DNA from: Clostridia bacterium
GTDB taxonomy: Bacteria > Bacillota > Clostridia > Christensenellales > Borkfalkiaceae
DNA: 64,000 bases
Assembly: GCA_017398825.1 (NCBI GenBank)
Contig: JAFQEV010000053.1
Location: 4,843-68,842 of the forward strand
Direction of reading: 5' to 3'
Below, one piece after another: positions 3,138 through 30,900 of the stretch (position 1 is the stretch's first letter; every line of letters starts with the position of its first letter). A program made the translations under genes and the position numbers. The notes under the pieces are model-generated. The model was not told the origin of the DNA, did not search any database, and saw nothing but the letters and a program-made list of their open reading frames with translations.

Positions 3138-3149
3138 ACGTCTTAAAAT

Positions 3150-3279
3150 TTTTTTAGACCTTAGAAGCAAGCAGAACAAGGCACGCGAAGTGTTTTGGAT
3201 GAGATTAACCTTGTTGGTTATCGAAGTCAAAACACTAAGCAGTAACGCAGTTATGCACCGCTTATAAGGGATAAAAATT
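3150..3279 (+). repeat. TIR-hairpin element copy (T2-c) abutting the gap stop codon
   Basis: P1 stem AGTGTTTTG (3189..3197) pairs with CAAAACACT (3228..3236). Inner stem is GAT-T-AACC/GGTTATC with a TTGTT loop, followed by the GCAGTAAC box. The element end touches the TAA of gap at 3278..3280. Confidence 0.75.
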
Positions 3280-5689: not shown

Positions 5690-6970
5690 ATGAAACAAAA
5701 ATTTGGAAAAATGAGAATTCTCAAGTACAAACCTGGCGATAAGGTAAAGCGCTACGATTTTAAGCGCAAGCCGTTACGCCCCTACCTACTCATGTGGCTT
5801 ATCCACTTAATCGTATGGTTTAAGGTTCTTTTTAGAAGGCACAAGGTATACCGCTACGGCAATAAACCCAAGCGCCCGTGCTTAATCCTTGCCTCCCACG
5901 CAGCGTTCAACGATTTTTACATGCTTTTCTCGGCTGTTAAAACGTATAACATTAACTACGTTACGGCGATTGACGCGTTCTACGATATGTCCACCTTCCT
6001 CATGAGAATTATCGGCGCTATTTGCAAGAGAAAGTTTATATCCGATATGAGCCTTATGAAAAACCTCAAGTATTGCACCGAAAAGCTCAAAAGCGTTACG
6101 GTAATCTACCCTGAGGCAAGGTATTCTCTTGACGGAACTACGAGCTATCTCCCTGAGTCTAACGGCAAGCTTGCAAAGTTTTTAAAAGTGCCCGTTTACG
6201 TATTCAAGCTTAGAGGCTCTTACGTTAGCGACCCGCAATGGAATAAGTACAAGCAAAACCGCATGCCTATGGAAGGCGATATGATTGAGGTTGTATCGGC
6301 AGAAGAGGTTGGCAAGCTTTCCGCTGAGGAAATCAACGAGAGAATTAACAAGGCGTTCAAGTATGACGACTGGCAGTATCTTAAAGACTGCGGTAACATC
6401 TTAACCTACAAAGAAAGGGCGACTAACCTCAATGCAATACTCTATCAATGCCCTCATTGTAAAAAGGAATTCGAGATGGTTGGCAAAGGCACTACTCTTA
6501 CCTGTACCGCTTGCGGAAAGATATGGGATATGCTTGAAAACGGCGAGCTTAAGGCGCGCGATGGCGAAACGTATTTTTCACATATTCCCGACTGGTTTGC
6601 TTGGCAAAAGCAAAACGTTCACGAAGAGGTATTTAGCGGTAAATATTCAGTTGAAGAAGAGTGCGAGGTATTTACCCTTCCCGATAGTAAAGGGTTCTAT
6701 CACCAAGGCAAAGGCAAGTTTATTCAAACGAGTAACGGCACAACCTTAAAGATTAACCTATACGGCGAGGATAAAACTATAGAGTACTCTGGAACTTCGC
6801 TCGAGAGCGTACATATCGAGTACAATTACAAAGGCTACGGCGATATGCTTGACTTTTCTATCTATGGCGATAGCGTTTGGATGCACCCCTACCGCAAAGA
6901 TTTTATAACTAAAGTATCCCTTGCCACCGAGGAAATTAGGGAACTTCACAACAAAAACATCAAAAAATAA
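5690..6970 (+). CDS. PlsC-family acyltransferase with an internal zinc-ribbon
   Basis: HxxxxD motif (SHAAFND), EARYS block and CPHCKKEF...CTACGK ribbon. The ORF-track start at 5651 lies inside the promoter, so the start is more likely 5690 or 5711. Confidence 0.7.
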   Translation: MKQKFGKMRILKYKPGDKVKRYDFKRKPLRPYLLMWLIHLIVWFKVLFRRHKVYRYGNKPKRPCLILASHAAFNDFYMLFSAVKTYNINYVTAIDAFYDMSTFLMRIIGAICKRKFISDMSLMKNLKYCTEKLKSVTVIYPEARYSLDGTTSYLPESNGKLAKFLKVPVYVFKLRGSYVSDPQWNKYKQNRMPMEGDMIEVVSAEEVGKLSAEEINERINKAFKYDDWQYLKDCGNILTYKERATNLNAILYQCPHCKKEFEMVGKGTTLTCTACGKIWDMLENGELKARDGETYFSHIPDWFAWQKQNVHEEVFSGKYSVEEECEVFTLPDSKGFYHQGKGKFIQTSNGTTLKINLYGEDKTIEYSGTSLESVHIEYNYKGYGDMLDFSIYGDSVWMHPYRKDFITKVSLATEEIRELHNKNIKK

Positions 6971-6974
6971 TTAG

Positions 6975-7003
6975 AACTCCGCTTTTTGTAGCGGAGTTTT
7001 TAA
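6975..7003 (+). terminator. Intrinsic terminator
   Basis: AACTCCGCT-TTTTGT-AGCGGAGTT followed by a T-run. Confidence 0.75.
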
Positions 7004-8593: not shown

Positions 8594-9124
8594 ATGAATA
8601 TTTGGAAAGATATTAGTAAAGAAAGAATTACACCAAAGGACTTTGTGGCCTGCATAGAAATAGAAAAGGGTTCTAAAAACAAGTACGAGCTCGATAAGGA
8701 AACGGGGCTTATAATACTCGATAGAGTATTATTCACGAGCACCCACTACCCTATGAACTACGGTTTTATTCCAAGAACGCTCTCTGATGATAAAGACCCG
8801 TTAGACGTATTCGTTTTATGCTCCCAACCGATAGAAAAAATGAGCTTAGTTAGGTGCTATCCTATCGGCGTTGTGTTTATGGAGGACAATGAGGAACGCG
8901 ATGAAAAAATCATTGCAATTCCTTTCGGTGACCCCCAGTACAACGGCTATCGCGATATTTGGGAACTCCCCGTACATATCATTGACGAGCTCAAGCACTT
9001 CTTATCCGTTTACAAGACTTTAGAGAACAAGAAAGTTCACGTTTTAGAGGTTGGCTCGCACGAAACGGCTGTTAAAACTATTGCCGAAAACATTAAAAAA
9101 TACGAGGACACTTTTGAAAAGTAA
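8594..9124 (+). CDS. ppa: Family I inorganic pyrophosphatase
   Basis: EIEKGSKNKYELD, YPMNYGFIP and DPLDVFVL motifs. Confidence 0.9.
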   Translation: MNIWKDISKERITPKDFVACIEIEKGSKNKYELDKETGLIILDRVLFTSTHYPMNYGFIPRTLSDDKDPLDVFVLCSQPIEKMSLVRCYPIGVVFMEDNEERDEKIIAIPFGDPQYNGYRDIWELPVHIIDELKHFLSVYKTLENKKVHVLEVGSHETAVKTIAENIKKYEDTFEK

Positions 9125-9128
9125 AAAT

Positions 9129-9162
9129 AAAACTCCCGCGGAATATTCCGCGGGAGTTTTTT
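9129..9162 (+). terminator. ppa terminator; left copy of a 31-bp direct repeat
   Basis: AAAACTCCCGCGGAATATTCCGCGGGAGTTT plus a T-run. 30/31 identical to 12466..12496. Confidence 0.8.
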
Positions 9163-9177
9163 AGTTGTTTAACGATA

Positions 9178-9570
9178 TTAATTAGCCTTTTTCATTTTCG
9201 ATATATTATCTTTTGAAAAAATTATTTTCTCCTTCCTTCTCTTTGCTCTTCTTCGTCTTGCAAAAATATCTATTTCTCGTCTTCCAATTTTTCCAGCACG
9301 TGAGCACATCCTAACTTTTTTATATCTACTTCTATTAGGCTTAATCGTTTCCTGACCATTATTTTCACAAATAACAAGACCGACTTTTGCTACTAATATA
9401 CGCCCTTTTTTAATCTGAGCTTTTGGGGAAATCTTATCTTTATGGCGACCACTTACATCATCAAGACCATCATTACAAGTAACTCCTTTTACTGTAACTA
9501 TCGGCTCGTTTTCATTTGGCTTTGTTTTTTTATCTTTTTTTAAGAATATTTTTTCATCAGTGCTATCCAT
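9178..9570 (-). CDS. Hypothetical highly basic 130-aa protein
   Basis: Strong RBS (AGGAGAAAGG). Lys/Arg-rich C-terminus (RRRRAKRRKEK). Very AT-rich coding sequence. No motif recognised. Confidence 0.55.
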   Translation of the reverse strand: MDSTDEKIFLKKDKKTKPNENEPIVTVKGVTCNDGLDDVSGRHKDKISPKAQIKKGRILVAKVGLVICENNGQETIKPNRSRYKKVRMCSRAGKIGRREIDIFARRRRAKRRKEKIIFSKDNISKMKKAN

Positions 9571-9580
9571 AACCTTTCTC

Positions 9581-10012
9581 CTAAATTATAAAACCAATAA
9601 ACACACCAAAAAAAGAAAAACTCAATATTATAGTTGATATATTTGTTAGCATTATTTTAATTTTCATTGTCTTTTCAATTTTTTCTATTGCTTTGTTAAT
9701 ATTTTCAAACCAATATTGCATATGCTCTTGTTCCGTTTTACTAAAGATTTCACCTTTTATCATCGGTTTAATCGATATTAAACTATAACTTTTTGGATAT
9801 AAGCCTATCAATATAAGGATGGAAGTTACAACTAACAAAAACATTAATATCATTTTCAAATAAAAGGAACTTGCGTCCTTAACGATTAAAAATAATGCGC
9901 TTGTTGCAATTAATAACATATTAAGTTTATTATCAATGTCACGCATTCTATTTATTCTTATTTTATACTCATCTTGCGCCATATTAAAGGCAGCCTTCAT
10001 ATTTTCAAGCAT
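9581..10012 (-). CDS. Hypothetical small membrane protein (143 aa, about 3 TM segments)
   Basis: RBS GGGAGATAAGG. The start overlaps the end of the LRR gene. An N-terminal amphipathic helix is followed by hydrophobic helices (LLIATSALFLIV, ILMFLLVVTSILILIGL, ISTIILSFSFFGVFIGFII). Confidence 0.6.
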   Translation of the reverse strand: MLENMKAAFNMAQDEYKIRINRMRDIDNKLNMLLIATSALFLIVKDASSFYLKMILMFLLVVTSILILIGLYPKSYSLISIKPMIKGEIFSKTEQEHMQYWFENINKAIEKIEKTMKIKIMLTNISTIILSFSFFGVFIGFII

Positions 10013-10015
10013 ACC

Positions 10016-12022
10016 TTATCTCCCAACATTTATAACACTATTAGCAAAAAAACCAACGTAACCATAGTTAGTAGAGCCTTTCTCTATCGTTATGTACGGA
10101 GAATTATTTACTACAGTTTTAAGATTCACGCAATTACAGAACGCCTCACCACCTATACTCGTTACTCCTTTACCTATTGTTACTCTCGTAAGTGATCTGC
10201 AATCATAGAAGGCACTGTAATCTATACTAGTTACACTATTTGATATCTCTATACTCGTAAGTGAATCACAATCATAGAAGGCAAAATTAGATATTTTAGT
10301 TGCAGTAGTAAGTTTAACTTCCGTTACTAAAACGTCGTTTATATAAAGATTTTTAGCATAATATAACGGATTTGAGAGTGAATTACTAAAATATATTTGC
10401 GCCCACTCGTCTATTGAGCCAAGATAATTAAGTTTTGTAAGCGAATCGCAACCTATAAACGCATAAGAACCTATACTCGTTACACTACTCGATATTTCTA
10501 TGCTCGTAAGTGAAATGCAACCCCAAAACGCATGCTTAGATATTTTCGTTGCGGTAGTAAGTTTTGCCTCAGTTACTAACACGTCGTTTATATATAAGTT
10601 GAGACCACGACGTAATGGATTTGAATATTCGTCATAAAATTCTATTTGAGCCCACTCGTCGATTGTTCCAAGATAATTAACTTTTGTTGACGGATCAACA
10701 TGACAAAACGCAAAACCCTCATAACCACCTATACTCGTTACACTATTTGATATTTCTATGCTTGTAAGAGAATAACACCCATAGAACGCATGATCACCTA
10801 TGCTTGTTACACCATTTCCTATTGTTACGCTCGTGAGTGAACTGCAATCATAGAATGCTTTAGATGGAATTTCCCCACCAGTTATAGTTACGGATTTTAT
10901 TGAAGTTGGGATGTAATAATGATAATGATATCCTCCACGTTGGTACCATTGACATATTGCTCCACTTACACTTGCAGTATTATTCATTGTTTTGTAACCA
11001 AATATATAGCCAAACACTTTGTTATAACCTGAATATGAGCCTTTATTTCCACCCACAAAAGGTATAGTGATACTTTCTAATGAAGAACAACCTTCTAACG
11101 CCCCACTACCTATACTTGTTACACTGTTAGGAATTATAAGCGTAGTGCCTTTATATCCTCTAAACGCATAACTTTTCACACTCGCTATACTGGGATTATC
11201 ACCCCAAACGATAGATGCCGAACAGCCGTTAAACGCGTCAACCCCTATATCAGTTACGCTATCATGAATTTTTATACTCGTGAGCAAATTGCAATCTTTA
11301 AACGCTTTTGCTCCAACACTTGTTACGGGATAACCGCGATATTCCGTTGCTATTTCAACTTGCGTTGCACTGCCAACGTAATCTACAACCTCAGCATACG
11401 AGTCGTCTATAATTGTATACACGACACCCGCAAGCTCTTCCACTTCGTTTTTAGAGGTATAGTAATCATTTGAATAAATAACGCCGTTATCGGTTATCGC
11501 GTAAGATACGGCAGTAAAGTTTTTAGCGTAAAGATTTTCATAAACCTTTGAAAGAGCGGTTTCTAAACCATCTTTGTCACTCTCAAGTTCGGGCTTTTGA
11601 GATAATATCCAAGAGGTAAGCGTTTCTTTGTCAAACAAAACACTTGCATTATAAGTAAACCCCTCGGTTAATGCTTGAGAAGATTTAGCTATTATATTAA
11701 TACCGTCAAGCGCCTCTTTGTTTTCAAAGGGTGTTTTATTATTATCTATCTCGCCATTATCTTTAGGATAAATGAGCGTACCGAAAGTGTAAACGGAAGA
11801 AGAGTTTTCACTTAAAAAATCACTTCCCACAGTAGTTTTGAACTTTAAGAGTTTATCGCCGTTGCTATCCGTTTCAACGGTTGCGTATTCCGATACGGAA
11901 AAACCACTTAACTCTTCAGCTTGAGCTTTATTCCCAGGCAAAAGCATAGCAATAGTAAATGCAATACATACTGTAAAAGCAAAAACCATTGTGCTAAGTA
12001 TAATCTTTTTAGATTTAACCAT
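10016..12022 (-). CDS. Secreted BspA-type leucine-rich-repeat (LRR_5) protein
   Basis: Signal peptide MVKSKKIILSTMVFAFTVCIAF...AQA. Repeated I/V-x-I-x-x-SVTSIG-x-x-AF-x-x-C-x-SLTSI modules. The preferred start is ATG 12022 (RBS GGGGGA) rather than the track start 12058. Confidence 0.8.
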   Translation of the reverse strand: MVKSKKIILSTMVFAFTVCIAFTIAMLLPGNKAQAEELSGFSVSEYATVETDSNGDKLLKFKTTVGSDFLSENSSSVYTFGTLIYPKDNGEIDNNKTPFENKEALDGINIIAKSSQALTEGFTYNASVLFDKETLTSWILSQKPELESDKDGLETALSKVYENLYAKNFTAVSYAITDNGVIYSNDYYTSKNEVEELAGVVYTIIDDSYAEVVDYVGSATQVEIATEYRGYPVTSVGAKAFKDCNLLTSIKIHDSVTDIGVDAFNGCSASIVWGDNPSIASVKSYAFRGYKGTTLIIPNSVTSIGSGALEGCSSLESITIPFVGGNKGSYSGYNKVFGYIFGYKTMNNTASVSGAICQWYQRGGYHYHYYIPTSIKSVTITGGEIPSKAFYDCSSLTSVTIGNGVTSIGDHAFYGCYSLTSIEISNSVTSIGGYEGFAFCHVDPSTKVNYLGTIDEWAQIEFYDEYSNPLRRGLNLYINDVLVTEAKLTTATKISKHAFWGCISLTSIEISSSVTSIGSYAFIGCDSLTKLNYLGSIDEWAQIYFSNSLSNPLYYAKNLYINDVLVTEVKLTTATKISNFAFYDCDSLTSIEISNSVTSIDYSAFYDCRSLTRVTIGKGVTSIGGEAFCNCVNLKTVVNNSPYITIEKGSTNYGYVGFFANSVINVGR

Positions 12023-12035
12023 ATTCTTTCCCCCT

Positions 12036-12167
12036 TTAATTAAGCCATTCTTTATCAAGCCAGCTCTCTTTAACGTGAGCGTAGTCTTGAACGGTGGACG
12101 TAGTTACTACGTCAACAAGATTATACTCAATAATCTCAATTGACGGTTTTAAGTATAGTTTTTTCAT
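12036..12167 (-). CDS. Unannotated 43-aa small ORF heading the LRR operon
   Basis: ATG 12167 lies 5 nt after AAAGGAGAGG. Translation is MKKLYLKPSIEIIEYNLVDVVTTSTVQDYAHVKESWLDKEWLN. Its stop overlaps the RBS of the LRR gene. It is below the ORF-track size cut-off. Confidence 0.55.
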   Translation of the reverse strand: MKKLYLKPSIEIIEYNLVDVVTTSTVQDYAHVKESWLDKEWLN

Positions 12168-12190
12168 AAAACCTCTCCTTTGGGTTTAAA

Positions 12191-12240
12191 ATATACCGAT
12201 TTGGGATATTTTTTATTATACCGCAATGGTATAATTTTGT
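12191..12240 (+). promoter_or_regulatory. Two inverted-repeat operators overlapping the XRE gene promoter
   Basis: TATACC-GCAAT-GGTATA (12217..12233) overlaps a TATAAT box. The related ATATACC-GATTT-GGGATAT lies at 12191..12209. Confidence 0.45.
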
Positions 12241-12255
12241 CAAAGGAATAAGGTT

Positions 12256-12462
12256 ATGAGATTAAGAAATTTGAGGAAAGAAAAGGGAATATCTCAACTT
12301 AAACTTGCCATTGACCTCAATATGAACCAAAACAGTATAAGCAGATATGAAACGGGCGAACGCCAAGCCGATTACACTACTCTAATAAAGTTTGCAGACT
12401 ACTTTGACGTTTCAATAGATTATCTCCTTGAACGAACTGACAATCCTAAAATTAATAGATAA
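12256..12462 (+). CDS. XRE/Cro-CI family HTH regulator (68 aa)
   Basis: LRKEKGISQLKLAIDLNMNQNSISRYETGER is a classic HTH_3 pattern, with a C-terminal DYLLERTD. Confidence 0.85.
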   Translation: MRLRNLRKEKGISQLKLAIDLNMNQNSISRYETGERQADYTTLIKFADYFDVSIDYLLERTDNPKINR

Positions 12463-12465
12463 ACA

Positions 12466-12500
12466 AAAACTCCCGCGGAAAATTCCGCGGGAGTTTCGTT
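12466..12500 (+). terminator. Terminator hairpin; right copy of the 31-bp direct repeat
   Basis: AAAACTCCCGCGGAAAATTCCGCGGGAGTTT. It sits between the convergent XRE gene and potD. Confidence 0.75.
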
Positions 12501-14231
12501 TTATTTAATAGGTTCTCTTTTTATAAGCGTTAAGTTCTTTCTCTTAAATTTGAGATTTAAGTGAATTCCCTTTTTGTTAAGATAGGATAAAATGGGCGCA
12601 ACGATTATTGCAAGTAGGATAATTCCAACTATCATTATCATAAGCCAAGAAGGAATTGCGGATACCTTAACCTCATCCCACATGTCGTTGAGGCGCGCCA
12701 TCTCCACGTCGTTAAAGTGTTTCATTATAGCGCAACGCATAACCGTTTCGCGAGTTGGGTACTGCGTTTCGAGCTGACGGCCTAAAGTGTCAGTCCAAAT
12801 AAACATATCGCCATCGTCGCTTTCGGTATTTAAGAGGAAGGAAACGTCGTATAAATATAAGTCAACGTCTTCATAGTATTCAAAGCGTATGATGTTCTCT
12901 TCCTTTTCATCGTACACGGGATAGCGCATTTCGTTTACCGTTATGCACCTGTAACCCGTTTCCGCATCAATTCCGTTATCGAGATAATCTTCGCCTAAAA
13001 CTAATTCGCCCTCGTCAATCGCGTCTTGCACGTAATACTCAAAGTACGCCTTGCCCGTTTTGCTATCAACAAAATCTGCATGTTGAGCGTCGTCAGTTTC
13101 AATCAAGGTGTAAGCGCCGTACCAAGAAATTGCAAATTCGTGCATCTCAGAACCGGCAACAACGGGAGTATAGCCGATATAGTTCATATTGATTTGCGCG
13201 TTTTCAGGGTCTGCTAAAAAGTTTACGAAATCTTGCGAAAGCTCTATATTCGCGCCTTTGGGCATAACCCAACCGTCAAACCAAATGTTACTGCCCTCTT
13301 CGGGAACGGCGTAGAAAAGTTCCGTGTTTGCCTCGTCGGCAATATCTAAAGTGTAAACGGCATCACCGCTCCAAGCAAAGTTGATTGCGATTTTGCCAGA
13401 CGCCATATCGCGCTTACCGCTATCAACCTCAAAGCCGTATACGTTACCCTTAAGCTCGATAAGCTCCTCAGTTACCTTTTGAACGGTAGCCTCGTCAGTA
13501 CGGTTAAAAATCCCCACTACTTGTTCTTGATAGTCCTCATCTGAAAGCTCGCCTGCTTTCCATCTAAGAGAAAGAGCTTTGAGCTCCTCGCTATACACCT
13601 TGCCGATTGCAAGCGCGTAGGTATCTCTAATACTATCTTTGATAGTGCCTAAGTTTTTAGAATAAGTCTTCCACGGGAAATCCCAGTGTGCCTCATCGCC
13701 CGGCTGATATTCACCGCCCGAATTTCTCTCTAATACCTCGGGGTTGTAAACGAAACCCATAGTTCCGTACATATAACCGCAGGCGTAATCCGTCCAACCG
13801 TATTTTTCAAAAAGGTCTAAGATGTATTTTGAGGAATAGGTATCGTAATTATCCAAGTTGCCAAGCGACCTATCGAACTTTTCAAGCATGCCCTCGCCGA
13901 GCATTTTTTGTATCATATAGTCGGAGGGGCAAACTAAATCGTAACCGTAATCGTAGCCGTTTTCCGTTTTTACCTTTGAAAGCTGTAATTCGTTATACAT
14001 ATTCTCGTTCGTGCCGAACGTTGAATAGTTAACGACTACCTTCTTGCCGTATTTTTCACTCGCGAAAGCCTCAAAATCGGCAATTAAATCGTTATCCTCG
14101 TCTTTGCAGATATAATCTTCCCAGTTGTAAACGTTAAGCTCTATAACTTCCCCTTCGCTCTTACAGCCCGTAAAGGAGAAGAGAGAGACTACCATTATAA
14201 GCGCAAGCGCTAAATTAAATATCTTTCTCAT
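12501..14231 (-). CDS. potD: Spermidine/putrescine-type ABC substrate-binding lipoprotein, unusually long (576 aa) with a C-terminal TM anchor
   Basis: Lipobox LFSFTGC and LNVYNWEDYI PotD signature. Extra inserted segments and a terminal hydrophobic helix IPSWLMIMIVGIILLAIIVAPILSYL are followed by a basic tail. Confidence 0.75.
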   Translation of the reverse strand: MRKIFNLALALIMVVSLFSFTGCKSEGEVIELNVYNWEDYICKDEDNDLIADFEAFASEKYGKKVVVNYSTFGTNENMYNELQLSKVKTENGYDYGYDLVCPSDYMIQKMLGEGMLEKFDRSLGNLDNYDTYSSKYILDLFEKYGWTDYACGYMYGTMGFVYNPEVLERNSGGEYQPGDEAHWDFPWKTYSKNLGTIKDSIRDTYALAIGKVYSEELKALSLRWKAGELSDEDYQEQVVGIFNRTDEATVQKVTEELIELKGNVYGFEVDSGKRDMASGKIAINFAWSGDAVYTLDIADEANTELFYAVPEEGSNIWFDGWVMPKGANIELSQDFVNFLADPENAQINMNYIGYTPVVAGSEMHEFAISWYGAYTLIETDDAQHADFVDSKTGKAYFEYYVQDAIDEGELVLGEDYLDNGIDAETGYRCITVNEMRYPVYDEKEENIIRFEYYEDVDLYLYDVSFLLNTESDDGDMFIWTDTLGRQLETQYPTRETVMRCAIMKHFNDVEMARLNDMWDEVKVSAIPSWLMIMIVGIILLAIIVAPILSYLNKKGIHLNLKFKRKNLTLIKREPIK

Positions 14232-15031: not shown

Positions 15032-15870
15032 AATCCGTTCCCCCTTGCGCTACCGCCGTCATCATCGGTGAACTTGTTAGTTACCCACATAGTTATAAAT
15101 ATTATAACTAAAAGCACCATCGCAATCGCCGAGCCTGCGTGCCAGTTAAACACCGTGGAAAACTGCGATTCTATTACCTTGCCGATTATCGTTACGTTGC
15201 CGTTGCCAAGAGTATCGGAAACAACGTAGCTCGTAGTGGTGGGCAAAAGCACCATAGTAACCGCACTCACAATTCCTGGAACGGTGAGAGGTAACGTTAC
15301 TCTTAAGAAGGTGCTTGCTGGCTTTGCACCAAGGTCTGCACTCGCCTCGATTAAGCTTTTGTCGAGCTTTATCATAACGGTGTATAACGGCATTATGGTA
15401 AAGGGCAAATAATCGTAAACCATACCTATAACGGTGTTTACAAAACTAAGCCTGTTGGTGCTGTACATTCCGATTGCAAATAAAAGCTCTTTCATAGCGG
15501 CGGTACGGAGCACGAAGTTTATCCACATAGGAAGGATAAACAACAAGAGTAACACGCCGTTTTTATTGAGTTTGCTCTTTGCCAAAATGTACGCCAAAGG
15601 ATACGATATAACTAAGCAAAGCGCCGTAGTTACTATCGCAAGCCCAAAGCTAATAAAAAGCACTCTTATATTCGAGCTTTTTGAGAAAAACTCGATAAAG
15701 TTTTCAAATGTTATAGAAACCTTTACGCCGGATAAAGTTATGTAGCCGTTAGGGTCTACTTTAGTAAACGCGTAAAGTATTATAAGCAGTAGTGGAAATA
15801 CCACGAACAACGCCAAAAACAGCGCGTAAGGTATTCCCAAATGCTTTCTCGAAAAGCGGAGGGTCTTCAT
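15025..15870 (-). CDS. potB: Polyamine ABC transporter permease
   Basis: EASADLGAKP permease motif and operon context. Confidence 0.85.
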   Translation of the reverse strand: MKTLRFSRKHLGIPYALFLALFVVFPLLLIILYAFTKVDPNGYITLSGVKVSITFENFIEFFSKSSNIRVLFISFGLAIVTTALCLVISYPLAYILAKSKLNKNGVLLLLFILPMWINFVLRTAAMKELLFAIGMYSTNRLSFVNTVIGMVYDYLPFTIMPLYTVMIKLDKSLIEASADLGAKPASTFLRVTLPLTVPGIVSAVTMVLLPTTTSYVVSDTLGNGNVTIIGKVIESQFSTVFNWHAGSAIAMVLLVIIFITMWVTNKFTDDDGGSARGNGLW

Positions 15871-17372
15871 TATTTTTTCTCCTCCGTTTTAAGCCTAAGC
15901 TTAATTTTTTCCTTGGGAATTTTAACGGAAACTCTATCGTTTTCGTTCCATACGTACTCGGTATCGCAAACGAAATCTTCTTCCTCATCGTCAGTTCTTA
16001 TAATGATTTGATAGTGGTCGCCCTTATATACGATAGAGATTATTGAACCGCAGGCGTCACCGTCCTCATCGTTGTCGATAATTTCGATATCCTTAAGCCC
16101 AACCTCAACCTTAACGTCAACGTCGGTCAGGTCTATTTTCTCGCCCTCGGCGGTGATGAGGTAACCCTCGTCGTCAAGATGAGAGTTTTCGTAAAGCTGA
16201 GTAACGTCACACTCAAACTCGCCGTCGGCAAACCAAACTTTATTTTCTTTAGTGATGTATCCGTCGTAAACGTTAGATACGAATTCCTTGTGCATTATGT
16301 GAATATCTTGCGGTGCAATGGAAATCCACACCTTTTCGCCAACGTCGTAACCCTTAGTTGACTGAATAACCACCTCGGAGCGACCTACCATCATAGTCAT
16401 TTGATAGTGAACGCCCTTGAAAATACAAGAGGATATCGTACCGGATACCATTCCCTTTTCTTCCTTAACGATTTTAACGTCCTCAGGGCGAACTACAACG
16501 TCTACCTTTTCGTTCTTTTCAAAATCATCAACACAGTCGAACACCTTGTTGATAAATCTAACCTTTTTCTCTCCGACAACAGTTCCGCTAAATATGTTGC
16601 TCTCGCCGATAAAGTCCGCAACAAAGGAATTAACGGGCTCGTTGTAGATATCTTGAGGAGTGCCGATTTGCTGAATTTTACCGTCCTTCATAACGACAAC
16701 GGTGTCACTCATAGTAAGCGCCTCTTCTTGATCGTGAGTAACGTAAATAAAGGTTATGCCAAGCTTTCTGTGCATTTCTTTAAGCTCGAGTTGCATATCC
16801 TTTCTCATCTTGAGGTCGAGAGCGCCGAGAGGCTCGTCAAGGAGCAAGATTTCAGGCTCGTTTACGATTGCGCGCGCAATCGCTATACGCTGTTGCTGAC
16901 CACCCGATAACGTGGTAACGCTCCTCTTTTCAAACTCTTCAAGGTCAACGATTTTTAATGCGCGCGAAACTTTATCGTCAATCTCTTTTTTAGAGAGTTT
17001 TTCGATTTTTTCAACTGTTCTGCCCTTTTTGTCAACGTAGGTTGCCTTTACTCTCTTAAGTTTTAAGCCGTAGGCAATGTTTTCGTAAACGTTGAGGTGG
17101 GGGAAAAGCGCGTAGCGCTGAAACACCGTGTTTACAGGTCGCTTGTGCGGAGGAAGATTAGTTATATCCTTGCCGTTGAGCATTATGCTACCAGTAGTGG
17201 GAAGTTCAAAGCCGGCTATCATTCTAAGCGTGGTAGTTTTACCGCATCCGGACGGTCCTAAAAAGGTAATAAATTCACCCTTTCTAACATATAAGTTTAC
17301 GTTTTCAACGGCTAAAGTTCCGTCGTATTCCTTGGATACGTTAGTAAGTTCAATAATTTTTTGCTTGCTCAT
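15870..17372 (-). CDS. potA: Polyamine ABC transporter ATPase with a C-terminal extension of about 120 aa
   Basis: Walker A GPSGCGKTT, signature LSGGQQQR and Walker B LLLDEP. It is 500 aa, compared with my recollection of about 370-385 aa for a typical PotA. Confidence 0.85.
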   Translation of the reverse strand: MSKQKIIELTNVSKEYDGTLAVENVNLYVRKGEFITFLGPSGCGKTTTLRMIAGFELPTTGSIMLNGKDITNLPPHKRPVNTVFQRYALFPHLNVYENIAYGLKLKRVKATYVDKKGRTVEKIEKLSKKEIDDKVSRALKIVDLEEFEKRSVTTLSGGQQQRIAIARAIVNEPEILLLDEPLGALDLKMRKDMQLELKEMHRKLGITFIYVTHDQEEALTMSDTVVVMKDGKIQQIGTPQDIYNEPVNSFVADFIGESNIFSGTVVGEKKVRFINKVFDCVDDFEKNEKVDVVVRPEDVKIVKEEKGMVSGTISSCIFKGVHYQMTMMVGRSEVVIQSTKGYDVGEKVWISIAPQDIHIMHKEFVSNVYDGYITKENKVWFADGEFECDVTQLYENSHLDDEGYLITAEGEKIDLTDVDVKVEVGLKDIEIIDNDEDGDACGSIISIVYKGDHYQIIIRTDDEEEDFVCDTEYVWNENDRVSVKIPKEKIKLRLKTEEKK

Positions 17373-17452
17373 AATCTTTTCTCCATAAAGAGTTTTTTCT
17401 TTAATTATTCTGTGTAATTTAATTAAAAGGCGAAATTTTAATAAACATCAAT

Positions 17453-24693: not shown

Positions 24694-27600
24694 TTAAAGA
24701 GTTATATTGTTGTACTCTTTGGTTACGGTAGTAGAAGAAATAATCTTGTTGCCGTTACCGATAGCGCGTACTCTAATAATAATGTTAGTAATCGCTACAC
24801 CCTCGTTTGCCGTCTTCCAGTCAACGATAGTCTGTGCGTTCTTAGCGTTAATTTGAGGTTGTACTGCAACTACGGGAGAAGTAAATTCGCCACCGTTAAT
24901 GCTGAATTCTACCTCGTACTGAACAGCATCAGTAATGGTTGCCCAAGTAATGATGCCTTCACGCCAAGTAAAGCTACTTTCGTTGGGAACTGCAAGTAAA
25001 GTGATGTAGTAGCTGGTGTTGTTACCACCTGCGGACTGGGAGTCGAGATAGTAAATACCTTCATCGTCAAACGCACCGCCGAGAGCGTAAACTCTTGCAA
25101 AGTGCTTGCCTACTGCACCAGGATTGTGATTGCAAGTGCTTGCCTTTACGGTTTGCTCTACACCTGCGATAGTGTAAGAATAACCGTTGTTGTGCTCAGA
25201 TTCTTTAGTGATAGTAGCGATGATTTCGCCCGTTTCACTATAGCTCTCTGCACTGTAGGAAAGCTTAAAGTCAGGAGTGGTGAGCTGTTTGGTCTTTTGA
25301 ACGAACTTGTTCTCGTCAGAATTGATAGTAGTATAACCACCGTCACCGATAGCGATTACAACAACCGTGTAATCTTTTACTCTATTGAACTTCGGAGTGT
25401 AGCTGTAGGACTCGCCAGATACGTGAGTGTAGGTTTCAGCAACAACGCCGTCAACGTAAATAACGTAACTGGACGCAAGAGCGATACCGTCCCAAACGTA
25501 CTTGCCGGTTTCGCGACGAACTTCGGGAGTTTCAAGCTTGTATACGGTAACTTCGGTGCTCTTTTCAGAGTTGATATACTCAGTACCGTTACCGATAGCT
25601 TTTACTAAGAAGGTGTAACTGTTTCCGCCAACGAGAGAAGAGATATCCATAGTGGTACCGTTCTTTTCGCCGTTGTAGAGAGTGCCGTTCGGATAGTAAA
25701 CCTCGTAAGTCGGGGTGTACTTTTGAGCGTTAATGTTGCGGGGTGCATTCCAAATAAGTTGATTGTTGTTGAACGCAACGTCACCAAAGGTGGGAGCGGC
25801 AAGCTTAACGAACTTAGTGGTAAGACCAGCTTTAGAAGACATGTAGTAAACAGTCTTATCGGTGTTGAAATAGTTAGCAACGGTTTCCATATGAACGGTA
25901 GTACCTTCAGTAGTTATGTACTGGTTCATGTTCTGAATATCTTCAGCAGGAACGCTACCAAGACCGCTATCACCATCGAATACTACGAGGTAGCTTAAAG
26001 CGTGGAGAACGGGATCCCAGCCGAGAACGCCTTCAGACGCGTCAGCCGTGTTAATTCTAACGTTTCTCGGAGCTTCAAGGCGTTGAACGTTGATAGCGCC
26101 GGTGTAGTTAGACGCAAGCACGTCACTACCGTTACCCTTAGCACAAACTCTAACGTCGTAAGAGCCTGCCTCTAAGATAGATAAATCGTAAGAGGTGTTA
26201 CCGCTGGTAGCCTTCTCACCGTCAATGCTGATAGAATAGCCGTTTGCACCGTTGATAGTGCCGTACTTGTATTCAAAGCCTTCGATAGTGGGAGTTGCGG
26301 GCTGAGCGAGAACTTTAATACCAAAGGTTAAAGACTTAGTCTTTAAAGAACTTAAGTTAACGCGGGTAATGCCACCGTTTCTGGAAACGTTACCAACTGC
26401 TTGAATTGCAAAGTTGTAGCTCTGCTCTTCGATAACGCTGTTAGCAACAACGTCAGTTACGGAGAACTGAGTAGCAAGACCGGTCTTGTACTCTGCATTA
26501 TCTCTATAAAGCTTGTATCCGCTTGCACCTGCAACGGTTTTAAAGGTTACGGTAAAGCCCTTGGATACGTCAGCTGCGTCACTCGTAATGAAATCTTCGT
26601 CGTTTTGAACGGGAGCTGCAAGTCTGGTGATGTAAATAGGATCGGAGTACTTAGACTCGTAGGTATTTGCATCGGAGGTAATTGCCTTGAGTTGAACCAT
26701 ATAATCGCCTTCGTCAAGGTATGCATGAGCATAACCGTCCTCATCTCTTGCAAGGTTGCGCTCGGTAGAGTTACCGTCAGGAGTAGTCACTTTAACTTTG
26801 TAACCGCCTGCGTTCTGGATAAGATCCCAGTAAATACTCTTCATTTCTTGACCTTCGTGCTCAAGACTGTCGTTCCATTGTAAAACAGGAGTGGGTAAAA
26901 TAAGAACGGTCTTGGGAGTGGACCAGCTCGAGAAATAAGTGCTATCCGTGCTAACAGGCATAATGCAAACTTCAGTAGAAACGTTTGCAGTTAAGTTAGG
27001 ATACGAGTTAGTAGATAAAGTTTCGTTCTTTACGTTATTACCGATTTTAATTTTATAACCGCTAGCACCGCTAACTTCGTTCCAAACGAGAACGCCGTCA
27101 ACTACGGTAACGTTAGTTACGGTAGGTAAGTAAACGAAATCCTTCTTCTCGGAAAGCGCACCACTAAAGGTAGTAACACCGTTACCAACTGCCTTGATTT
27201 CAACTGAGAAGTTCAAGGCGTTAGAATCGTATGCAAACGAAGTACCGCTGTGGTTTTCAGCAAGAACAACGCCGTTAACTCTAACTTCGTAACCGGTAGC
27301 GCCAGCAACCGAGTTCCAGTTAATAGATGCGGTAGTGTTAGAATAAACGATTTGATCTTTGTTAACCTGACCAAGAATATCTAACTGCTTAGACTGGCTC
27401 CACTCTGAATAGTAAGAGGTGTCACCTGAAACGATAGCCTTTACTGCAATGTTGTGGTGACCAGCGGGCAAGTTGGTGTATTCGGTTTCATAGAACTCGT
27501 TAGGAAGTTCAGAACCGTTATCCTTAACCTTGTACGCGGTAGCGCCGTCAACAGCGTCCCAAGAAATATTACCAGTAGCGTCAATGCGAACTTCTTGAAT

Positions 27601-27921
27601 TTTCGCAAGCGGTTTAAAGGTCTTTGTAGCCTCGCCCTCTTCCTTTACTTTTTCGGATTTGTGCGTAGCTTTAATAGTTACGGTAAATTCAGCGCCGTTT
27701 GCTCTGAACGCATACCTGTTGGTATTAACCGTATACTCGTCACCACCGTTGATAGACACTTTGTACTGGTTAGCGTCTTGTACAGAGTCCCAGGTAATAG
27801 ACGAGCCGTCGTATCTGATGTTCGTGGGATCACCAAGCTCGAGGCCCTTACAACCCGTTAACCCTATCATTAACGTGAACGCACACGCGCACGCTAATAT
27901 TGTAAGTAACAGTTTTCTCAT
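24694..27921 (-). CDS. Large surface lipoprotein composed of at least 11 FN3-like modules
   Basis: Lipobox MRKLLLTILACACAFTLMIGLTGC (start ATG 27921 with RBS AAGGAG). Recurrent I(S/T/N)W(D/N)xVxGA(T/S)xYxV modules of about 90 aa. Confidence 0.8.
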   Translation of the reverse strand: MRKLLLTILACACAFTLMIGLTGCKGLELGDPTNIRYDGSSITWDSVQDANQYKVSINGGDEYTVNTNRYAFRANGAEFTVTIKATHKSEKVKEEGEATKTFKPLAKIQEVRIDATGNISWDAVDGATAYKVKDNGSELPNEFYETEYTNLPAGHHNIAVKAIVSGDTSYYSEWSQSKQLDILGQVNKDQIVYSNTTASINWNSVAGATGYEVRVNGVVLAENHSGTSFAYDSNALNFSVEIKAVGNGVTTFSGALSEKKDFVYLPTVTNVTVVDGVLVWNEVSGASGYKIKIGNNVKNETLSTNSYPNLTANVSTEVCIMPVSTDSTYFSSWSTPKTVLILPTPVLQWNDSLEHEGQEMKSIYWDLIQNAGGYKVKVTTPDGNSTERNLARDEDGYAHAYLDEGDYMVQLKAITSDANTYESKYSDPIYITRLAAPVQNDEDFITSDAADVSKGFTVTFKTVAGASGYKLYRDNAEYKTGLATQFSVTDVVANSVIEEQSYNFAIQAVGNVSRNGGITRVNLSSLKTKSLTFGIKVLAQPATPTIEGFEYKYGTINGANGYSISIDGEKATSGNTSYDLSILEAGSYDVRVCAKGNGSDVLASNYTGAINVQRLEAPRNVRINTADASEGVLGWDPVLHALSYLVVFDGDSGLGSVPAEDIQNMNQYITTEGTTVHMETVANYFNTDKTVYYMSSKAGLTTKFVKLAAPTFGDVAFNNNQLIWNAPRNINAQKYTPTYEVYYPNGTLYNGEKNGTTMDISSLVGGNSYTFLVKAIGNGTEYINSEKSTEVTVYKLETPEVRRETGKYVWDGIALASSYVIYVDGVVAETYTHVSGESYSYTPKFNRVKDYTVVVIAIGDGGYTTINSDENKFVQKTKQLTTPDFKLSYSAESYSETGEIIATITKESEHNNGYSYTIAGVEQTVKASTCNHNPGAVGKHFARVYALGGAFDDEGIYYLDSQSAGGNNTSYYITLLAVPNESSFTWREGIITWATITDAVQYEVEFSINGGEFTSPVVAVQPQINAKNAQTIVDWKTANEGVAITNIIIRVRAIGNGNKIISSTTVTKEYNNITL

Positions 27922-27979
27922 AGTTTTTTCTCCTTTTATATATTCAACAAGATGCAATCTTGTTTAAACTTTTCAAGTT

Positions 27980-30900
27980 TTATTCTGCCTCAGTTCCGAT
28001 AGTAAAGTTTGAGGTTGACGCAATCAAAGTTGCATCGTCTGAACTATCGCCGTTAACAGTACCCGTAAAGGTGTAGTAATTGATTGACGAAGAGCCGTTA
28101 TCAGTACTTACTGAGCCGAATAATCCACCAACCGTCTCAGAGCCGGAAACGTTTGCCGAACAATGAATTTCGTTCATGGTAACTAATATGCTACCGTTGT
28201 TTCCACTGCCCCAAGTGTTAACGTAAACGTCACCAGCAATACCGCCTACAGCATCGTTGCCGTTAACAGCTCCGCTGTTATTAACGTTAGTAAATGCAAC
28301 GGTGTAAGAACCGCCGTTATATGCATTATCCCAGCCGTTGTACACTCTACCTAATATACCGCCTACGTAATCTTTACCCATTACCGAACCCATGTTAGTG
28401 AGGTTGATAAAGGAATAAGATCCCGTACTTGATACGTCGCCAACTAAACCGCCAACGTAGTTTGCGTTACGTGCAGTAACGTCACCAACGTTTTCACACT
28501 CTTCAATCGAATGAGTAAGTCTACCTGCAATACCGCCTACGTACGAACCGTTTTTGGAGTATGCAATAGAAACTGCGTTATCGCACTTTTCAACGTAATA
28601 GCCGTGACCTACGTAACCGCCTACGTAACCGTAGTAATTAGTACCGTCAATTATCACGCCCGTTGCAACTATGCTACTGTTAACGTTGTAGCACTCGATA
28701 AGCATAACGTTTTGTAACCTACCTGCTAAACCGCCAACATACGCCTCGCCGGTAATCGTTGCCGAGCTCGTGCTCGCCTCGATTGAGGAACTACCCGTAT
28801 CGGAGTATGCATCGCCTACTAAACCGCCTACGTAATTAACGCCAGTTATATCACCCGTGTTGTTGAGTGCGCTTGCGCTGATAAGTACACTGCCGTTATT
28901 ACCACTACCCCAAGTGCTTGCACTTATGTTGCCGATAATACCGCCTACTTGAATTCCACCCTCAACGTCACCGCTGTTAGTTGCGTTTATTACCTTAACG
29001 CTGTAAGAACCGCCGTTATAACCGTTATCCCAGCCGTTGTAAACTTCGCCGATAACGCCACCAACGTAATCCTTACCGGTAACGTCACCAGAGTTGTTAA
29101 GAGTATTGAACTCGTACGAGCCGGTGCAGTTAACTAAGCCTACTAAACCACCAACGTAGTTGGAGTTTGTTGCCGTAACGTTTGCGGTGTTGGTGGACTT
29201 GGTAATAGCATTGTCAAGCCTACCTGCGATACCGCCTACGTAAATGCCGTTCTTAGCGTAATTAATTTCAACTGCGTTGTCACAGCCCTCTACGTAATAT
29301 CCGTGACCTACGTAACCACCTACGTAGCCGTAATAAGTAGTTCCGTCTAAAATATATCCCGTTGCGGTTACCGTTGAACCCTCGTTAGAGGAATCGATAA
29401 GCTTAACGTTTTCAAGCCTACCTGCTAAACCGCCTACGCGCGCATCAGCAGTAATATCTGCCGTGCTCGTACTACCGGTAATCGATGAACCGCCGTTATC
29501 CGAATATGCTCTACCGAATAAACCGCCGACGTAAGTAGTACCTTGAACGTCACCATCGTTATTTAAAACGTTCACGTTAACGATTACGCTACCGTTATTA
29601 CCGCTACCCCAAGTGCTTGCGCTGAGGTTGCCCATAATACCGCCTACGTAATTTTGACCAACTACAGCACCGTTGTTAGTGAGGTTGATTACCTTTAAGG
29701 TGTGAACGGTGGTGTTATAAGCTTGATCCCAACCGTTGCTGAGCTCGCCTATAATACCGCCTACGTAATCTTTACCCTCAACGTCACCGCTGTTAGTGAG
29801 GACAGCTACGTCATATCCGCCGTTGTAGTTGAGTAAACCTACCAAACCGCCAACGTAGCTTGCGTTCTTTGCAGTTACGTTTCCGGTGTTAGTTACGTTC
29901 TTTAAGGTGTTTGCAAGTCTACCTGCAATACCACCTACGTAAATACCCTTTTCAAGATATCTAACGTTTACGTCGTTATCGCAATCTTCAACGTAGTAGC
30001 CGTAGCCTACGTAACCGCCGATGTAACCGTAATAAGTAGTTCCGTCTAAGGTGTAACCCTCGGCTATCAATATCGTGCCTGCGTTAGAACAGGTTATAAG
30101 GCTTACGTTTTCAAGCCTACCTGCCAAGCCGCCTACGTACGAATCAGCAGTAATAGTCGCCGCACTTTGAGAGTTGGTAATAGAAGAAGTACCCGTATCG
30201 GAATATGCATATCCGATAAGTCCGCCTACGTGAGTAGTACCAGTAACGTCACCGCCGTTTGCAAAACTCGTTATAGTGAGCGTTACGCTACCGTTAGAAC
30301 CACTGCCACTCGTGTAAGTGGTAACGTAGCCGATAATACCGCCGACGTATCCTTCACCGCTAACCTTTCCGCTGTTAGTTGCATTGCCAAGCTTAAAGGT
30401 GTGACCAGCGCTGTTATAGCCTTGCGACCAAGTGTTAGAGATAAAGCCGTAGATACCGCCTACTCTATCACCGCCTTCAACCTCGCCTTCGTTTACAAGC
30501 TTAGCCATTAACGCCATATCGCCGGACTTGCTGAACAAGCCGATGATACCGCCGGTTGCATAATCGCCGATTACTTTACCGTAGTTGTAAAGATCGCTAA
30601 ATCCGGTAGCAGTAGCGTAACCGATGATACCGCCACCGTATCTCTTAATAGAAATAGTACCGTAGTTTTCAGCGTTCGTTATCGAACCTCCATTAAACTG
30701 ACCTGCTATACCGCCTGCGGAAACGTTTTCCTCATAGGTTGCAGTAGTTACGTTTGCAAAGTTCGAACAGTTGGTAATCGTACCCGTGGAGTAACCTACC
30801 AAACCGCCTATTCTACAGAAATCGCCTTTCACCTCACCCGAAACTTTAACGTTTTCAAGCGTGCCGGTGAGTTCTGCACACACACCGCCTACGTATACGG

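Follow-up and report, generated by a model that had tools for sequence, protein, structure and literature searches.

Genes and terminal hairpins of the island

The 64-kb stretch of Clostridia DNA analyzed here (the window) contains, between the host genes ppa and potD, an island of five genes that is bracketed by two near-identical hairpin repeats. On one side lies ppa, encoding inorganic pyrophosphatase (8594–9124, plus strand), and on the other a gene for a PotD-like solute-binding protein (12501–14231, minus strand), which forms the end of a potABCD-like operon. Within the island, an XRE/Cro-C1-type helix-turn-helix (HTH) regulator of 68 residues (12256–12462, plus strand; HTH_3, E = 9e-15; also phrog_8) is divergent from a minus-strand operon of four genes. 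The first of these is p43, a 43-residue open reading frame (ORF) with a strong ribosome-binding site (RBS) at 12036–12167. It is followed by a 668-residue BspA-type leucine-rich repeat (LRR) protein (10016–12022), by p143, a predicted membrane protein of 143 residues with three hydrophobic segments (9581–10012), and by p130, an ORFan of 130 residues with an isoelectric point of 10.4 and no family match (9178–9570). The intergenic gaps in the operon are 13, 3, and 10 nucleotides (nt) in this order. All five genes are as an earlier reading of the same DNA, made from the letters alone (the original prediction), had described them.

The ends of the island are formed by the direct repeat H1, to which no strand is assigned. 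The left copy, H1-L (AAAACTCCCGCGGAATATTCCGCGGGAGTTT, 9129–9159), belongs to a perfect palindrome of 32 nt that extends to 9160 and has a 14-bp stem and a 4-nt loop. The right copy, H1-R (AAAACTCCCGCGGAAAATTCCGCGGGAGTTT, 12466–12496; hairpin 12466–12497), matches it at 30 of 31 positions, with a single loop base differing. Both stems are 13–14 bp long, eight of the pairs being GC, and the geometry can also be described as arms of ~12 nt about a 6-nt centre. The folding energies are −24.8 and −25.3 kcal/mol for H1-L and −26.8 and −27.3 kcal/mol for H1-R, that is, −25 to −27 kcal/mol on either strand of both copies (z about −7 to −8), and U-tracts are present on both strands at both sites. A GC-rich stem-loop that closes a transcription unit and runs into a U-tract is a predicted intrinsic terminator, and since strong folding is combined here with a U-tract each way, the two hairpins look like bidirectional terminators, H1-L for ppa (plus) and the p130 operon (minus), H1-R for the XRE gene (plus) and potD (minus). 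H1-L lies 4 nt past the ppa stop codon and 17 nt past that of p130; H1-R lies 3 nt past the XRE stop codon and 4 nt past that of potD. With such spacing, each hairpin would be the sole terminator available to a convergent gene pair. The original prediction had placed 31-bp hairpin repeats at exactly these positions and had read each of them as a terminator as well; the first point is confirmed and the second agrees with the predicted folding and the U-tracts. No third copy of H1 occurs in the window at up to three mismatches, where the chance expectation is 0.

Four metagenomic contigs from Logan (L003, L004, L011, and L012) end inside H1-L, at 9158 and 9131. These breaks are presumably an assembly artefact, a perfect palindrome of k-mer length collapsing the de Bruijn graph, and are no evidence of excision.

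The DNA between the hairpins has a GC content of 0.340, as compared with 0.425 ± 0.019 in 541 windows of the same size elsewhere in the 64 kb (z = −4.4), and lies below every one of them. GC at third codon positions is also low, 0.20–0.36 in the five island genes versus 0.456 ± 0.05 in the 44 other ORFs. The island is thus foreign by composition, and the AT-richness first noted from short samples is borne out over its whole length.

Gene products and predicted regulation

The 668-residue protein matches LRR_5 (PF13306) with E = 6.9e-65 and 217 bits, against a Pfam cutoff of 27.7, and its N-terminus, MVKSKKIILSTMVFAFTVCIAFTIAMLLPGNKAQA, is signal-like. It therefore has both features by which a BspA-type LRR surface protein is recognized, an LRR_5 match above cutoff and a secretion signal. 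Its closest relatives of solved structure, PDB entries 4gt6 and 4fs7, are cell-surface LRR proteins. The combination of signal peptide and LRR_5 repeats is that of the BspA-like surface proteins of gut and oral anaerobes. Unlike those, the protein has a new domain of ~190 residues (the N-domain) between the signal peptide and the repeats, which always comes after a 43-residue ORF, and here it is accompanied by two lineage-restricted ORFans and an XRE repressor. The N-domain is common to this protein, to a 762-residue LRR protein (LRR_2) of locus L143, and to a 1248-residue protein of locus L063, both of which are described below. The LRR gene also has internal repeats of 69 nt and 249 nt.

At all three of these loci p43 carries an RBS, and in L063 it is conserved at the amino-acid level with synonymous changes, so that, judged by its sequence, p43 is a genuine conserved small protein. 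It is always found directly upstream of a secreted protein bearing the shared N-domain, which suggests a functional partnership. When the six-frame ORFs of the fetched loci (1.1 Mb) were all searched with a hidden Markov model, p43-like genes turned up at only the three known loci.

For p130, p143, and p43 no function could be assigned by homology in Pfam, NCBIfam, PADLOC, or PHROGs. Among 5.8 billion proteins, a word-indexed search recovered no relatives besides the p130 and p143 orthologs of locus L015 and a paralog of p43; the sole relative of p143 is 97% identical to it. A full HMMER search with a p130 profile over 1.84 billion representatives recovered only its own ortholog. Relative to the L015 orthologs, the ratio of nonsynonymous to synonymous divergence (dN/dS) is 0.125 for p143 and 0.42 for p130, which indicates that both are real genes in spite of being ORFans. 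Structure prediction, suggested earlier as a way to characterize the small proteins, was of no help with function. The AlphaFold2 model of p143 has three long helices (mean pLDDT 67), for which Foldseek found no match in the PDB, and that of p130 was unusable (pLDDT 34).

In Pfam, NCBIfam, PHROGs, and PADLOC, no match to an integrase, transposase, or recombinase family was obtained for any of the five island proteins, in keeping with the earlier statement that no integrase or transposase lies inside the island, and no phage structural or defence family was matched in the same libraries. In PADLOC, p130, p143, and the LRR protein are without any match to anti-phage defence systems; the HTH protein alone matches, to generic regulator models. 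There is no integrase gene in the island or anywhere else between ppa and potD.

The operon is preceded by a putative sigma-70 promoter, TTGACA-17-TATAAT, at 12243–12215 on the minus strand, with 12 of 12 matches to the consensus. Putative XRE operators, read from the sequence, occupy 12190–12235: a perfect 8-5-8 palindrome, ATTATACC-gcaat-GGTATAAT, at 12215–12235 overlaps the −10 element of the promoter, and a second copy (7/8) lies 25 nt further on, at 12190–12210. An HTH_3 protein divergent from a promoter with palindromic operators is the layout of an XRE/Cro-C1 repressor-operator pair, as had been proposed. We infer that the XRE protein represses an operon for a BspA-type LRR protein exported by the Sec route, and that bidirectional terminators insulate this operon. 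The 68-residue regulator would bind ATTATACC-N5-GGTATAAT over the −10 element and keep the operon off until a signal arrives. Once on, the operon would yield the exported LRR protein, probably an adhesin or binding protein, along with its 43-residue partner, the membrane protein with three transmembrane segments, and the basic ORFan, and the paired terminators would shield both the cassette and its neighbours from read-through.

The ppa-potD junction in related genomes

States of the junction were gathered by exact-protein look-up of ppa together with a metagenome scan. In four relatives with ~83% nucleotide identity to the window (L002, L005, L006, and L008), the junction is empty: a spacer of 110 bp holds a hairpin, AAAAACGGTGGA-loop-TCCACCGTTTTTT, which shares only the inner GGA..TCC with H1. 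The more distant L066 is also empty, with a 59-bp spacer and one bidirectional hairpin. These empty junctions with terminator hairpins alone support the earlier suggestion that a convergent ppa-terminator-potD junction had received an insert. In L007 and L009 (~91% identity) the island is present, with ~75 extra nt that include a weak hairpin between ppa and H1.

Other cargo is found further away. In L015, the flanks of which are ~77% identical to those of the window, the order from potD to ppa is a different terminator, a leader of ~400 nt, a gene for an 859-residue LRR lipoprotein, p143, p130, and a variant of the hairpin, AACTCCCAACGaaatttCGTTGGGAGTT. This junction has no XRE gene, no p43, and no second hairpin copy, the variant being present on the ppa side only. 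In L063 (amino-acid identity 90% for ppa and 45% for potD), a p43 homolog (p47; 55% identical) precedes the secreted protein of 1248 residues, the first ~190 residues of which are homologous to the N-domain of the window LRR protein; there is no XRE gene, p143, or p130, and the terminators differ.

Thus the states seen at ppa-potD are empty, LRR-p143-p130, p47 with the 1248-residue protein, and the full island. It follows from these varied states that the junction is a hotspot and the island a mosaic. The mosaic has at least two sub-modules, one made of XRE, p43, and the N-domain, and the other of the LRR C-terminus, p143, and p130. The first occurs without p143 and p130 at a second locus between valS and rnj (see below), the second occurs without XRE and p43 in L015, and p43 with the N-domain occurs alone in L063. 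Recombination is also seen inside the LRR repeats. A reading of the island as one indivisible four-gene module is not supported, as its parts recur separately.

Comparison with L015 also dates the island relative to its surroundings. Set against L015, the window shows a synonymous divergence (dS) of 0.14 in p143 and 0.19 in p130, while the flanking genes are saturated (2.2 for ppa, 3.6 for mreB, 3.5 for maf, and 1.5 for potC). Such low values against saturated flanks point to a recent transfer between species. Along the DNA, identity to L015 rises from ~79% to ~92–97% on crossing H1-L (78.8% at the 3′ end of ppa, 71% in the hairpin, 91.8% in the island interior), and the tract of recent ancestry stops at H1-L and does not reach into ppa. 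In the comparison with L007 the interior is instead the most divergent part: 94% at the 3′ end of ppa, 93.8% in the hairpin, and 88.2% in the interior. In both cases H1-L appears to diverge like the host flank and not like the island interior, although the sample of 31 nt is small. The two comparisons agree and suggest that the hairpin belongs to the site and that the interior DNA travels.

Two features of L015 deserve mention in their own right. Its hairpin (10411–10438, corresponding to 9131–9158 of the window) keeps the outer stem AACTCCC/GGGAGTT, and in the inner stem there are three fully compensatory pair changes, GCGG/CCGC to AACG/CGTT. By its sequence this may be either structure-preserving evolution of a terminator or replacement of the inner stem in one step. 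Secondly, a leader of ~230 nt (6740–6975) lies between a promoter-like site and the gene for the 859-residue lipoprotein and closes in a strong terminator-like hairpin, AGGTGTCGTTTACGCtttGTAAACGGCACTT, with a T7 tract just before the RBS. This leader looks like a transcription attenuator or riboswitch, with no Rfam family at threshold and nothing above sub-threshold noise in a permissive scan.

A sister cassette between valS and rnj

Apart from the homolog in L063, the only other relative of p43 is a paralog of 83% identity in locus L143, between valS and rnj. The order of features there is valS, hairpin H2a, XRE2 (reverse), p43_2 and LRR_2 (both forward), hairpin H2b, and rnj. Both cassettes were found in the same five samples (ERZ28654211, SRR12529057, SRR12529064, ERZ28653878, and ERZ27256764), and therefore are probably located in one genome. 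XRE2 is also an HTH protein of 68 residues, unrelated to the XRE of the window and with a palindromic operator of its own. The GC content of the sister cassette is 36.3%, versus 41–42% in its flanks. A search for the cassette in other contexts, proposed earlier, has thus recovered an XRE-p43-LRR paralog from which p143 and p130 are absent.

The two hairpins of the sister cassette, H2a (AAAAAAGCACGG-ttttata-CCGTGCTTTTTTT) and H2b (AAAAAAGCACGG-ttag-CCGTGCTTTTTTT), share a stem that is unrelated to H1 and have loops of 7 and 4 nt. The valS-rnj junctions of other lineages were reached through cluster members of RNase J and ValS. In one of these, L158 (~82% identity), the junction is empty and contains a single hairpin, AGCACGG-tttaag-CCGTGCT. 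BLAST aligned L143 3–3971 to L158 949–4897 and L143 6723–9130 to L158 4864–7264, so that the two alignments share 34 nt of the empty site (L158 4864–4897), a stretch found at either end of the L143 cassette. At L161, an empty site of a more distant lineage, a single orthologous terminator is present; its stem has drifted, but its flanks are conserved. Taken together, L158 and L161 indicate that the single-terminator state is ancestral and that stems drift between lineages, and this drift may explain why the empty ppa-potD sites of the ~83% identity lineage do not carry H1. Insertion at or through a hairpin present once in the empty site, as the original prediction had it, is therefore seen at valS-rnj, where the direct repeat corresponds to the single copy of the empty site. 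At ppa-potD the empty sites bear another stem, and the evidence for that locus is indirect.

The valS-rnj junction is likewise a hotspot of gene gain. No fewer than four states occur among the eight loci compared (L143, L154, L155, L157, L158, L159, L160, and L161): empty, EamA on the plus strand, EamA on the minus strand with LysR, and XRE-p43-LRR. Similar, non-identical hairpins, AGCACGGC..GCCGTGCT and AGCGTGGA..TCCACGCT, enclose the EamA cargo of L154 and L159, and may represent a terminator duplication that is older and has decayed.

Between the two paralogous cassettes, the ~85 nt that make up the 3′ half of p43 (12036–12120 in the window and 4330–4417 in L143) are nearly identical in nucleotide sequence, as against only ~69% identity in the DNA on either side, a pattern suggestive of gene conversion between the two loci or of an extra constraint at the RNA level. 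No RNA family reached its gathering score in the island, L015, L143, or L063. A further stretch of 117 nt with 79% identity is shared by the window (3149–3265, minus strand) and L143 (9151–9267), where it lies in the 5′ leaders of a 785-residue ORF of the window and of the peptidase U32 gene at the valS-rnj locus. It may be a shared cis-regulatory RNA; a permissive Rfam scan gave sub-threshold noise alone. Elsewhere in the window, two very large adjacent ORFs of 1087 and 1705 residues on the minus strand (24694–33097) form a further surface-protein locus, the larger one having Listeria-Bacteroides (Flg_new) repeats and the N-terminal region of M26 IgA1 proteases.

Rarity of same-stem hairpin pairs

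A survey of 1.13 Mb of fetched loci gave 557 hairpins with stems of at least 7 bp. Among the Clostridia loci, pairs with the same stem were found only as the two cassette pairs, a tandem duplication in L094, and longer inverted repeats in L114. In L094 (5916–7428) a gene for a secreted protein of ~222 residues is duplicated in tandem, with an identical terminator (AAAATGGCACT stem) downstream of each copy; such a duplication is a trivial route to same-stem terminators and was used as the baseline. In L114, an unrelated Clostridia contig, inverted repeats of ~60 nt (15300–15400 and 17330–17420), each with the palindrome CCGGAAATCCGGC-gaa-GCCGGATTTCCGG, flank a 2-kb pair of adenosine deaminase and amidohydrolase genes, and may be a pair of miniature inverted-repeat transposable elements (MITEs) or the ends of an invertible or mobile segment.

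In the genomes of 185,579 species (one per species), the H1 stem occurs in 47 unrelated genomes, once in each and always with a different loop; in none of these 47 was it present twice in one locus. The near-identical loops of H1-L and H1-R, set against the ever-different loops elsewhere, argue for a true duplication and not for convergence. A common terminator sequence, or an element resembling MITEs or repetitive extragenic palindromes, was considered and rejected, given the two copies in 64 kb and the 47 single, unrelated occurrences elsewhere. The insertion reading would have been in difficulty had the 31-bp hairpin proved common at many unrelated loci, and it is not.

Origin of the island

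We propose that the island is a horizontally acquired, self-regulated surface-protein cassette in the ppa-potD hotspot, inserted at a terminator with a duplication of ~30–35 bp, and we give this reading a probability of about 55%. Before the insertion, a bidirectional intrinsic terminator would have stood between ppa and potD; the cassette would have entered there, and the event would have duplicated ~30–35 bp, including the whole hairpin. As an outcome, each host gene would keep a terminator and each end of the cassette, the XRE side as well as the operon side, would gain one. If the hairpin was duplicated on entry, then the 31-bp repeats are a long target-site or crossover-site duplication and not ends carried by an element; and since the cassette has no recombinase, functions of the host or functions supplied in trans must have been at work. 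Candidate routes are staggered nicks at the base of a palindrome or cruciform with subsequent capture and fill-in, a template switch of replication at the hairpin with the hairpin copied again after the donor DNA, and Campbell-type integration, in which a circle would recombine through the short homology of the hairpin. The last of these could also account for repeated insertion at one site in related species. The proposal draws on the observed repeats with their predicted terminator structure, the composition of the island, the empty sites, the recent transfer, and the duplicated terminator of the sister locus. That the same process made H1-L and H1-R we infer from the divergence pattern and by analogy with valS-rnj.

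Could the island have arrived by more familiar means? It may be an ordinary hotspot islet, or minimal mobile element, exchanged through homologous recombination in the core genes on either side; the hairpins would then be incidental, one of them having been copied locally. At both ppa-potD and valS-rnj the cargo varies from lineage to lineage, the cargo is a mosaic with recombination within the LRR repeats, and recombinase-free hotspots credited to flanking homology are known in Neisseria (PMC3787668, PMC1797815). As in those minimal mobile elements between conserved core genes (PMC1797815, PMC3787668), alternative cargo or none is found here between the same conserved genes, no integrase lies inside, and exchange takes place among related species. 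The boundary of the exchanged DNA here, however, is a terminator hairpin and not a point within the flanking genes, and the hairpin of the empty site is duplicated on either side of the cargo. Crossovers in the flanks would have left flanks of high identity, whereas the recent tract ends at the hairpin, and they would leave unexplained why the ends of two cassettes share the hairpin stem of an empty site when same-stem pairs are otherwise rare. We regard this explanation as rather improbable. A prophage or mobile-element remnant, in which an XRE immunity repressor and a moron or tail-fibre-like LRR gene survived the deletion of the integrase and the rest, would account for the AT-rich composition and for the matches of the XRE protein to phrog_8 (1.8e-25) and RstR (1.5e-15, below its cutoff) and of the LRR region to phrog_35892 and phrog_18805. 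But the five proteins match no structural, replication, lysis, or integration family, relatives of the N-domain number 0 in 2.9 million viral contigs, the same compact architecture free of phage genes is seen at two loci and in all lineages seen, and the boundaries fall exactly at host terminators, with no att-like repeats of a tRNA or gene 3′ end. Of the explanations considered this one is quite improbable.

The hairpin could instead have been brought in by the element, as an att- or attC-like site of a circular cassette with one hairpin between the converging 3′ ends of the XRE gene and the operon. A structure-specific recombinase encoded in trans, integron-integrase-like or Xer-like, would integrate the circle so that a hairpin stands at each end. 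The empty ppa-potD sites recovered are without H1; in the window, L007, and L015 alike, H1 adjoins the 3′ end of p130; in L007 a further hairpin separates H1 from ppa; and the cassette is compact, with 3–17 nt from gene ends to hairpins, as in integron cassettes. Xer-type sites have arms of ~12 nt around a 6-nt centre, which the geometry of H1 resembles. Indeed, compactness, absence of an own recombinase, and bounding by hairpin-forming palindromes are common to the island, integron cassettes, and the dif/pdif modules of Xer. Typical attC sites have R/L boxes and extrahelical bases, whereas the palindromes of both cassettes are perfect and carry A and T tracts in the manner of terminators, and their sequence is that of the host site. 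The window contains no integrase, attI, or array; attC was judged from the form of the palindrome, no attC model being run. Further, a relative with an empty valS-rnj site has a single copy of the hairpin there, which makes it host-owned, the related cassettes bear unrelated hairpins, H1 and H2, each matching its own locus, H1-L diverges with the host flank, L015 carries one copy only, and the 7-nt and 4-nt loops of H2a and H2b are hard to fit to a recombination site of fixed spacing. An Xer/dif-like site was set aside on account of these loop lengths and because the hairpin belongs to the host site; the explanation as a whole we consider unlikely. Transposition leaves a comparable trace, since target-site duplications, like attL/attR, turn a single stretch of the empty site into a direct repeat around the inserted DNA, as at valS-rnj. 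The unit here is ~30–35 bp and an entire palindromic terminator, with no recombinase gene and no conserved ends, and the two related cassettes bear unrelated repeats that match their own targets. There are no terminal inverted repeats and no motif common to the ends of the two cassettes, and a repeat of 31–34 bp exceeds the 2–15 bp taken here as the range of transposon target-site duplications.

Several observations weigh against insertion with terminator duplication at ppa-potD. No empty ppa-potD site bearing H1 was found among the recovered relatives, and the ~75 nt with a hairpin in L007 and L009 mean that H1 is not always the terminator proximal to ppa. L015 does not have the second hairpin that the proposal predicts, unless its potD side was replaced later. 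The generalization comes from two cassettes, and other hotspot cargo (EamA-LysR and the 1248-residue protein of L063) is without a clean duplication. To our knowledge, a target duplication of 30–35 bp is far longer than those of known transposases. As for the cargo, its likely function is indicated by the HTH and LRR domains alone.

Implications for gene gain without recombinases

Most horizontally acquired genes of bacterial chromosomes are located in a few hotspots between core genes, and many of these hotspots have no recombinase. Entry of DNA at such sites is largely assumed to take place by homologous recombination in the flanks. Recombinase-less hotspot islets are thus already known. We know of no case in which duplication of a whole terminator marks the point of entry, twice within one cassette family, and a full-text literature search of limited coverage found no description of terminator duplications flanking recombinase-less cassettes, which is weak evidence of novelty. 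A broader and more tentative proposal is that XRE-p43-LRR cassettes form a kind of recombinase-less mobile cassette not described before, which targets terminator palindromes and duplicates the whole terminator (~30–35 bp); we hold it doubtful. The palindrome would then be recognized as a DNA hairpin or cruciform, or as a site of replication stalling.

The cargo is of interest in itself, as it combines a repressor-controlled BspA-type LRR protein with p43 and two ORFans in an uncultured lineage of ruminant and gut Clostridia. If terminator palindromes do serve as entry points, this would provide a concrete and testable mechanism for recombinase-free gene gain, and would explain how cargo arrives already insulated and how the host genes keep their terminators. 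Pairs of terminators with the same stem would then be a simple signature of recent insertions in any genome, and junctions between core genes would become hotspots of gene gain without any integrase.

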